Notes under the pieces: model-generated
What the model was told of the DNA's origin: nothing
The model's input: the letters and a program-made list of their open reading frames with translations, nothing else
Database searches by the model: none
Shown: positions 21,678-30,370 of the stretch, piece by piece
Layout: each line of letters opens with the position of its first letter
Numbering within the stretch: position 1 is the first letter of the stretch
Made by a program: the position numbers and the translations under genes
Assembly (NCBI RefSeq): GCF_024502345.1
Contig: NZ_JALDNN010000001.1
Reading direction: 5' to 3' (one strand)
Length of the DNA stretch: 64,000 nucleotides
Source of the DNA: Escherichia coli
GTDB lineage: Bacteria > Pseudomonadota > Gammaproteobacteria > Enterobacterales > Enterobacteriaceae

Positions 21678-27741
<6,064 letters not shown>

Positions 27742-27747
27742 TACTTA

Positions 27748-27780
27748 CCCGCAGAAATCATTCTGCGGGTATTAAGTTGC
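27748..27780 (+). terminator. putative intrinsic terminator after astE
   Basis: Stem cccgcagaa / ttctgcggg with a 4-nt loop, followed by a weak T-rich stretch. Confidence 0.5.
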
Positions 27781-27914
27781 TTTCTTATAAATTAATACAG
27801 ATTAATCCTGGTTATTTGCTTTATTTATCACCAGTCATCCGGTATAGTTCTTCATAATCTCTGCAAAATCATCGTGTTGTAATATTCGCTCATCACTCTC
27901 CATCAAATTTTCTT

Positions 27915-27932
27915 TTTTTCTCCATAATTGGC
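27915..27932 (+). promoter_or_regulatory. BaeR-box-like site upstream of spy
   Basis: tttttctccataattggc matches the BaeR binding motif (TTTTTCTCCATDATTGGC) as I recall it; located about 150 nt upstream of the spy ATG. Confidence 0.6.
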
Positions 27933-27940
27933 GCAAAAGT

Positions 27941-27956
27941 GTTTTTTACACTTTCA
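27941..27956 (-). promoter_or_regulatory. possible CpxR half-site pair upstream of spy
   Basis: Reverse complement reads GTAAAacaatGAAAG, close to GTAAA-N5-GTAAA. Confidence 0.35.
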
Positions 27957-27970
27957 TTGTTTTACCGTTG

Positions 27971-27998
27971 CTCTGATTAATTGACGCTAAAGTCAGTA
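27971..27998 (+). promoter_or_regulatory. candidate sigma70 promoter of spy
   Basis: -35 TTGACG (27971-27976), 16-nt spacer, -10 TAATCT (27993-27998). Confidence 0.45.
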
Positions 27999-28070
27999 AA
28001 GTTAATCTCGTCAACACGGCACGCTACTTAAGAAAGCCGTAATAAATAACTGAAAGGAAGGATATAGAAT

Positions 28071-28556
28071 ATGCGTAAATTAACTGCACTGTTTGTTGCC
28101 TCTACCCTGGCTCTTGGCGCGGCTAACCTGGCCCATGCCGCAGACACCACTACCGCAGCACCGGCTGACGCGAAGCCGATGATGCACCACAAAGGCAAGT
28201 TCGGTCCGCATCAGGACATGATGTTCAAAGACCTGAACCTGACCGACGCGCAGAAACAGCAGATCCGCGAAATCATGAAAGGCCAGCGTGACCAGATGAA
28301 ACGTCCGCCGCTGGAAGAACGCCGCGCAATGCATGACATCATTGCCAGCGATACCTTCGATAAAGCAAAAGCTGAAGCGCAGATCGCAAAAATGGAAGAA
28401 CAGCGCAAAGCTAACATGCTGGCGCACATGGAAACCCAGAACAAAATTTACAACATCCTGACGCCGGAACAGAAAAAGCAATTTAATGCTAATTTTGAGA
28501 AGCGTCTGACAGAACGTCCAGCGGCAAAAGGTAAAATGCCTGCAACTGCTGAATAA
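28071..28556 (+). CDS. spy: periplasmic ATP-independent chaperone Spy
   Basis: 161-aa product with a signal peptide MRKLTALFVASTLALGAANLAHA and LTDAQKQQIREI motifs. Confidence 0.95.
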   Translation: MRKLTALFVASTLALGAANLAHAADTTTAAPADAKPMMHHKGKFGPHQDMMFKDLNLTDAQKQQIREIMKGQRDQMKRPPLEERRAMHDIIASDTFDKAKAEAQIAKMEEQRKANMLAHMETQNKIYNILTPEQKKQFNANFEKRLTERPAAKGKMPATAE

Positions 28557-30274: not shown

Positions 30275-30370
30275 GTGCTACGCCTGTCAGGCCTATTCGA
30301 CTCCTGCAATGCATTGAATTTGCATAGTTTTGTAGGTCGAATAAGGCGTTCACGCCGCATCCGGCGTGAA
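30275..30370. repeat. REP / BIME elements between cho and nadE
   Basis: ...ttgtaggtcgaataaggcgttcacgccgcatccggcgtgaac..., the canonical REP consensus, plus a second partial copy. Confidence 0.75.

Follow-up and report, generated by a model that had tools for sequence, protein, structure and literature searches.

The spy control region and the loci compared

The window analysed here, a stretch of 64 kb, is E. coli chromosome, and the interval flagged in the original prediction (27915-27998) lies inside the astE–spy intergenic region, a spacer of 329 bp (Table 1). A 421-nt query (27700-28120) containing the intergenic region and the first 50 nt of spy was 100% identical to E. coli loci annotated astE and spy, was found in 5424 of 5426 complete E. 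coli genomes, and differed from K-12 MG1655 by 1 nt. The downstream gene is thus spy, as had been predicted; its product is a periplasmic chaperone. MG1655 coordinates were converted by the relation window = 28071 + (1825625 - MG1655 coordinate). All elements had been placed within 90 bp upstream of spy, and the named elements do fit a span of 84 nt, but this span is located 73-156 nt upstream of the ATG. The control region as a whole runs from approximately 27843 to 28021, which is about twice the flagged interval; the distal BaeR region, the -10 and the start region were left out of the latter.

For the comparison across enterobacteria, 80 spy loci were obtained from a scan of one genome per species, and the genera included Escherichia, Citrobacter, Salmonella, Enterobacter, Klebsiella, Raoultella, Kosakonia, Phytobacter, Cedecea, Buttiauxella, Franconibacter, Siccibacter and others. 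The identity of each element was calculated as the mean identity to E. coli over the 66 non-Escherichia loci. The -35 hexamer and TTTAC were used as anchors of the stack, so their conservation is partly by construction. The anchors did not include GAAAG, the BaeR cores, GTAAAGT or the start region.

Table 1 Coordinates and cross-genus identity of features at the astE–spy locus (identity, mean to E. coli over 66 non-Escherichia loci)
Feature	Position	Strand	Sequence or description	Identity
astE	26773-27741	+	From the ORF list	
Upstream flank and inter-site spacer				0.50-0.55
Candidate -10 for the start at 27856	27843-27848	+	TATAGT; adjoins the distal BaeR repeat at its 5' edge	
Distal BaeR region	27848-27868	+	TTCTTCATAATCTCTGCAAAA; two TCTNCANAA cores 11 bp apart; outside the flagged interval	0.68
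Distal TCTNCANAA cores	27849-27857, 27860-27868	+	Exact	
Proximal BaeR region	27915-27938	+	18-mer box plus degenerate second half-site	
BaeR box	27915-27932	+	TTTTTCTCCATAATTGGC; 18/18 to consensus TTTTTCTCCATDATTGGC, partly circular (see text)	0.80
Core inside the BaeR box	27919-27927	+	TCTCCATAA; consensus TCTNCANAA	
Degenerate second half-site	27930-27938	+	GGCGCAAAA; part of the proximal BaeR region	
Near-invariant block	27941-27965	-	GTTTTTTACACTTTCATTGTTTTAC; includes the CpxR-like site and a third GTAAA	0.96 (TTTAC used as anchor)
Third GTAAA	27945-27949	-	Inside the near-invariant block	
CpxR-like site	27951-27965	-	GTAAAACAATGAAAG; GTAAA-N5-GAAAG, 2 mismatches from GTAAA-N5-GTAAA	
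Conserved linker	27966-27980	+	CGTTGCTCTGATTAA; between the CpxR-like site and the -35	0.87
-35 hexamer	27981-27986	+	TTGACG; 5/6 to consensus	1.00 (used as anchor)
GTAAAGT in the -35/-10 spacer	27996-28002	+	Very strongly conserved	0.96
Best candidate -10	28003-28008	+	TAATCT; 16-nt spacer; 3/6, A at position 2 and T at position 6	0.84
Conserved start region	28009-28021	+	CGTCAACACGGCA	0.97
5'-terminal stem-loop	28016-28040	+	ACGGC (28016-28020) pairs with GCCGT (28036-28040)	
5'UTR after the start region				0.35
spy coding sequence (regulated gene)	28071-28556	+	161 aa, ATG at 28071; from the ORF list	

Published dependence of spy on BaeR and CpxR

The dependence of spy on BaeR and CpxR, and the occupancy of the spy region by BaeR, have been shown by others. 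In MG1655 under ethanol, spy changed by -5.76 log2 in the baeR knockout and by -3.04 log2 in the cpxR knockout, and BaeR ChIP-exo under the same stress gave two peaks upstream of spy (PMC7657598). A Pspy reporter gave no response in baeR mutants and a weaker one in cpxR mutants (PMC12488859); reporter assays in these mutants had been suggested as a check on the original prediction, and the published data support its reading. Under chlorite stress in E. coli, the induction of spy was BaeR-dependent and the effect of cpxR was only partial (PMC12503329), while the induction in Salmonella required both BaeR and CpxR (PMC5355577). In addition, spy was raised by 6.1 log2 in a Klebsiella baeS mutant that had been selected as resistant to a BamA inhibitor, and mdtA was also up in this mutant.

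The proximal BaeR region

Two BaeR consensus sequences are in use in the literature: TTTTTCTCCATDATTGGC, quoted in PMC3799227 and PMC11644481 and attributed to Nishino 2005, and TCTNCANAA, attributed to Yamamoto 2008 in PMC3799227. At spy, the 18-mer box covers the first of the two half-sites in the proximal BaeR region, and the core inside it was found at a fixed offset in the compared loci, with an exact TCTNCANAA in 56/80 and nCTnCA in 73/80. The box had been described as near-exact; it matched TTTTTCTCCATDATTGGC at 18 of 18 positions, although this score is partly circular because spy, together with mdtA and acrD, was reportedly among the promoters from which the consensus was built. Both BaeR consensus sequences reportedly go back in part to the spy promoter, so matches to either of them at spy are circular as evidence. 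The box is also unique, being the sole match in the 64-kb window even when up to 3 mismatches were allowed (0.24 expected).

The same 18-mer box was found with one mismatch in the mdtA promoter (TTTTTCTCCCTTATTGGC) and in the acrD promoter (TTTTTCTCCACGATTGGC), but the arrangement at spy is different. By our reading of the sequence, the mdtA box lies directly against the -35 region or overlaps it, and inspection by eye suggests much the same for acrD. At spy, by contrast, 42-48 bp separate the end of the proximal box from the -35 downstream of it, the CpxR-like site is located in this gap, and a second BaeR copy is found 70 bp further upstream. The ChIP-exo data differ as well, since the mdtA box is inside a BaeR peak, while neither of the two spy peaks obtained under ethanol covers the 18-mer box itself. 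After re-mapping, the two BaeR peaks at mdtA covered the 18-mer box and the core promoter, which suggests that paired BaeR peaks may mark the outer borders of a BaeR–polymerase complex.

The distal BaeR region and the upstream start site

Analysis with a repeat finder showed that 27848-27868 (TTCTTCATAATCTCTGCAAAA) and 27918-27938 (TTCTCCATAATTGGCGCAAAA) form a 21-nt direct repeat with 76% identity, 70 bp apart. Exact TCTNCANAA cores begin at 27849, 27860 and 27919 on the plus strand, that is, three within 79 bp. A same-strand triple of this core within 100 bp did not occur in any of 1000 Markov simulations of the 64-kb window and occurred in 1 of 50,000 simulations at AT-rich intergenic composition. 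The direct repeat and the three same-strand cores point to two BaeR regions at spy, each with two half-sites at a distance of 11 bp, as expected for a dimer of the OmpR/PhoB type. Yamamoto and colleagues are said to have described in 2008 two BaeR-binding regions with the TCTNCANAA repeat on the spy promoter, together with a separate CpxR site, and this account fits the two BaeR regions and the separate CpxR-like site that we find in the sequence. BaeR ChIP-exo peak_2 re-mapped to 27853-27873, on the distal repeat. Across genera, the distal core was exact in 35/80 loci, about 70 nt beyond the proximal core, and TTCTTCATAAT was matched at 9 or more of 11 positions at a fixed offset in 57/74 loci.

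The only spy start reported from TSS-seq of cultures without envelope-stress induction, with a 5'UTR of 215 nt (Kim 2012), corresponds to window position 27856 and falls inside the distal BaeR repeat. The hexamer TATAGT is a candidate -10 for this start by its position, and TAnnnT was found at the same place in 58/74 loci; there may be an upstream promoter at 27843-27856, and BaeR would occlude it. The long leader and the conserved hexamer could also mean that the distal element (27843-27868) is mainly the core of a separate weak promoter, with peak_2 a polymerase-associated signal and not a second BaeR site, and many BaeR ChIP-exo peaks do sit at strong core promoters (rplJ, ssrS, raiA, rpoH). 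We consider this unlikely, however, since the element repeats the proximal region, carries two exact cores at the 11-bp distance and keeps its 70-bp spacing to the proximal site in other genera, in line with the two binding regions reportedly found in 2008. Moreover, a start at 27856 is compatible with a BaeR site, because BaeR could bind over it.

The CpxR-like site

The CpxR-like GTAAA-N5-GAAAG that had been predicted on the opposite strand is present as sequence, but it is not significant alone, as GTAAA-N5-GTAAA with up to 2 mismatches had 85 matches in the window against 56 expected. It becomes a credible site on the strength of the phylogenetic footprint. GTAAA-N5-GAAAG was kept in 78/80 spy loci, always 30-31 nt upstream of TTGACG, and the block around it was among the most conserved elements of the region (Table 1). 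The linker between this site and the -35 was conserved too, except in Cedecea and Buttiauxella. Taken together, the motif and the genetics suggest that CpxR would bind at this site, and a CpxR footprint on the spy promoter, apart from the BaeR sites, was reportedly described by Yamamoto et al. in 2008.

The CpxR-activated promoters of cpxP, ppiA, yccA and degP share with spy the CpxR dependence and a tandem pentamer with a periodicity of 10 bp upstream of the -35. They have GTAAA-N5-GTAAA boxes, whereas the second pentamer of spy is GAAAG in nearly every genus, that is, fixed and non-consensus, and this fixed half may stand outside the textbook picture of BaeR, CpxR and sigma-70. The binding data also separate spy from these genes: CpxR ChIP-exo, done in ethanol as a single condition and with low signal-to-noise, had peaks at cpxP, yccA and ppiA and listed none at spy, which was classed among the CpxR genes other than direct targets (PMC7657598).

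The missing peak, in spite of a drop of 3 log2 in the cpxR knockout, raises the question of whether CpxR acts mainly indirectly, for example via the mdtABCD-baeSR operon or other Cpx genes, with 27941-27980 bound by the alpha subunit of RNA polymerase or another factor. In favour of such a route, baeR is in the CpxR iModulon and RegulonDB has mdtABCD-baeSR as a CpxR target, and the site itself is 2 mismatches off consensus, with a non-consensus GAAAG half that is invariant. We nevertheless regard mainly indirect control as quite unlikely. The conserved distance of the site from the -35 is typical of an activator of the OmpR family, the footprint is said to be separate from the BaeR sites, and the ChIP-exo experiment had low signal-to-noise and ethanol as its sole condition. 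Direct binding of CpxR at GTAAA-N5-GAAAG is the reading kept below.

Two further CpxR-like matches were considered. One is the CpxR motif GTAAAAATAACTGAA from a motif-finder study in Salmonella, 16 nt upstream of the ATG, which was rejected as the main site because it is purely computational and is located in the 5'UTR beside the ribosome-binding site. The other is a match at 27986-28000 in the spacer of the core promoter, of which only the GTAAA half is conserved, hence it is not a conserved two-half site.

The core promoter

The original prediction had included a reasonable sigma70 -35/-10 pair. Its -35, TTGACG, is in the flagged interval and matches at five of six positions, but the best candidate -10 lies beyond 27998, and the sigma-70 consensus scan of 27650-28150 called no promoter. 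TTGACG, 16 nt and TAATCT together score 8/12, which is below the scan threshold of 9/12. TTGACG was present in 80/80 loci, though it served as the alignment anchor, and TAATCT was found in 41/74 loci, with most variants retaining its second-position A and its final T. A weak -10 of this kind fits the expectation for an activator-dependent promoter.

The spacer between the two hexamers was itself conserved. GTAAAGT was exact in 60/74 loci; Cedecea and Buttiauxella have GTAAACT in its place, and a single locus (TTATAGT) fits neither nTAAAGT nor nTAAACT. The heptamer may represent a single half-site of the CpxR type, but the pentamer that would pair with it upstream is not conserved, so it does not form a complete CpxR box. 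Since this spacer motif is more conserved than the assigned -10, the assignment of the core promoter is not secure, and GTAAAGT could mark the contacts of a further factor or an unusual geometry of CpxR and polymerase.

Based on the position of the -10, the collapse of conservation after 28021 and the stem-loop at the 5' end, the proximal transcription start is predicted at approximately 28014-28016. BaeR ChIP-exo peak_1 re-mapped to 27985-28019, from the -35 through the start region. The predicted start is not listed in the Kim 2012 start-site data, which come from uninduced cultures; the Klebsiella start-site tables had no spy entry, and the Cappable-seq supplement gave no coordinates for the spy region. 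A full-text literature search for footprint descriptions and the spy promoter sequence returned nothing useful.

Three other readings of the promoter were inspected by eye and rejected. A sigma-E promoter (TCTGA at 27972-27976 with ACTT upstream) would have a spacer of 18 nt against the usual 16, and spy is up, not down, in rpoE mutants. If TAAAGT were the -10, TTGACG would be just 10 nt away and a usable -35 would be lacking. A TGTTTA repeat of the PhoP type was a poor match.

The spy leader

The stem-loop at 28016-28040 was seen in every single-sequence fold, and RNAalifold on 20 genera gave 5 pairs, 3 of which had compensatory double changes, while the length of the loop varied by genus from about 4 to about 30 nt. 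The covariation of this hairpin supports a structured 5' end of the RNA at 28016. The hairpin probably stabilises the spy mRNA.

Two observations were made further down the leader. High conservation across genera was seen in the 5'UTR block AATAACTGAAAGGAAGGA (28040-28062), of which the Shine-Dalgarno sequence is a part; this block is where the Salmonella motif-finder study put the CpxR motif of spy, in conflict with the upstream site. There is also a 14-nt inverted repeat, 79% complementary, between 27951-27964 in the CpxR-like block and 28043-28056 in the 5'UTR block AATAACTGAAAG, just upstream of the ribosome-binding site. It would be relevant only in the long transcript from 27856 and may be a coincidence in AT-rich sequence.

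As the start at 27856 is inside the distal BaeR repeat, binding of BaeR could switch spy from the 215-nt leader to a short leader capped by the hairpin. This start, the GTAAAGT of the spacer and the fixed GAAAG leave room for extra control, but they do not overturn the main reading. We see only a slim chance that the locus is more than a textbook promoter of BaeR, CpxR and sigma-70, with the upstream promoter, the fixed GAAAG and the spacer GTAAAGT as additional layers.

Conservation of the arrangement across enterobacteria

The same layout was common to the 80 loci: the -35, 30-31 nt, the CpxR-like site, 32 nt, the proximal BaeR core, about 70 nt, and the distal core. The resulting phylogenetic footprint over the spy control region is strong (Table 1), and the rigid spacing of the elements across genera suggests that the geometry matters. 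The envelope-stress control that had been predicted for this region is thus supported by the published genetics, by BaeR ChIP-exo signal in the intergenic region and by the rigid motif spacing in 80 loci. A reading of the motifs as accidental matches in AT-rich intergenic sequence, with no part in regulation, is effectively refuted by conservation and published genetics: the CpxR-like match alone is at chance level and a simple scan passes no promoter, but the BaeR 18-mer is exact and unique, the TCTNCANAA cluster is nearly absent from the simulations, the elements are near-invariant and rigidly spaced while the flanks diverge, and the ChIP-exo and knockout data back regulation.

Other features of the window and of the compared assemblies

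A perfect GC-rich hairpin (cccgcagaaatcattctgcggg, 27750-27771) just past the astE stop codon looks like the terminator of the ast operon; the terminator scan was silent on it because it is without a T-run. Rfam matches at gathering score were obtained for the Phe leader, the sRNA STnc540 and ES036 (CssrF) at 54188-54312, 58152-58310 and 30289-30331 (minus strand), respectively, and the ES036 match was barely above the Rfam threshold. Over the whole window, TCTNCANAA was commoner than in shuffles (18 vs 7.9 expected), and this excess, like that of GTAAA-N5-GTAAA, is probably an effect of composition or codons and does not represent extra binding sites. Among the compared assemblies, one 'Citrobacter sp.' MAG had an E. 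coli-type spy contig (L002, 99% protein identity) in addition to a Citrobacter-type one (L026), and an 'Arthrobacter sp.' assembly (L052) had a 503-bp contig encoding an enterobacterial Spy. These spy contigs are likely contamination in public assemblies.

Proposed mechanism and significance

Reading the whole region jointly, we consider it very probable that the locus is the activator-dependent spy promoter under the control of BaeR and CpxR. The core promoter, whose -35 is good but whose -10 is weak, would be nearly silent by itself. Phosphorylated BaeR, a regulator of the OmpR/PhoB type, would bind the two tandem-repeat regions of TCTNCANAA-like half-sites 11 bp apart, centred near -89 (proximal region) and -157 (distal region) relative to the predicted start at about 28015, and phosphorylated CpxR would bind GTAAA-N5-GAAAG near -57, between the BaeR sites and the -35. 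RNA polymerase could then be recruited by either pathway or by both together, so that the Bae signals (zinc, ethanol, tannin, chlorite, spheroplasting) and the Cpx signals (copper, misfolded envelope proteins) would converge on one promoter. The transcript would open with the conserved 5' hairpin, which probably has a stabilising role. The bases contacted by each protein, the -10 and start positions and the direct binding of CpxR in this scheme are those that we infer from the analyses above.

The locus is the same as the published E. coli spy promoter and does not differ from it in kind (Raffa & Raivio 2002; Nishino 2005; Yamamoto, Ogasawara & Ishihama 2008). Its dependence on BaeR as well as CpxR is in the literature, and so are the BaeR box and the TCTNCANAA core. 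It is a textbook promoter, and because its regulators, motifs and dual control have been published, nothing fundamental is added here as a discovery; the additions are the conservation of spacing across genera and the ChIP-exo peaks re-mapped onto the motifs. Few envelope-stress genes are induced as strongly as spy, and Pspy is widely used as a biosensor of envelope damage. The full extent of the control region (approximately 27843-28021 plus the 5' hairpin) therefore matters for the construction of reporters and for reading the cross-talk between BaeR and CpxR.
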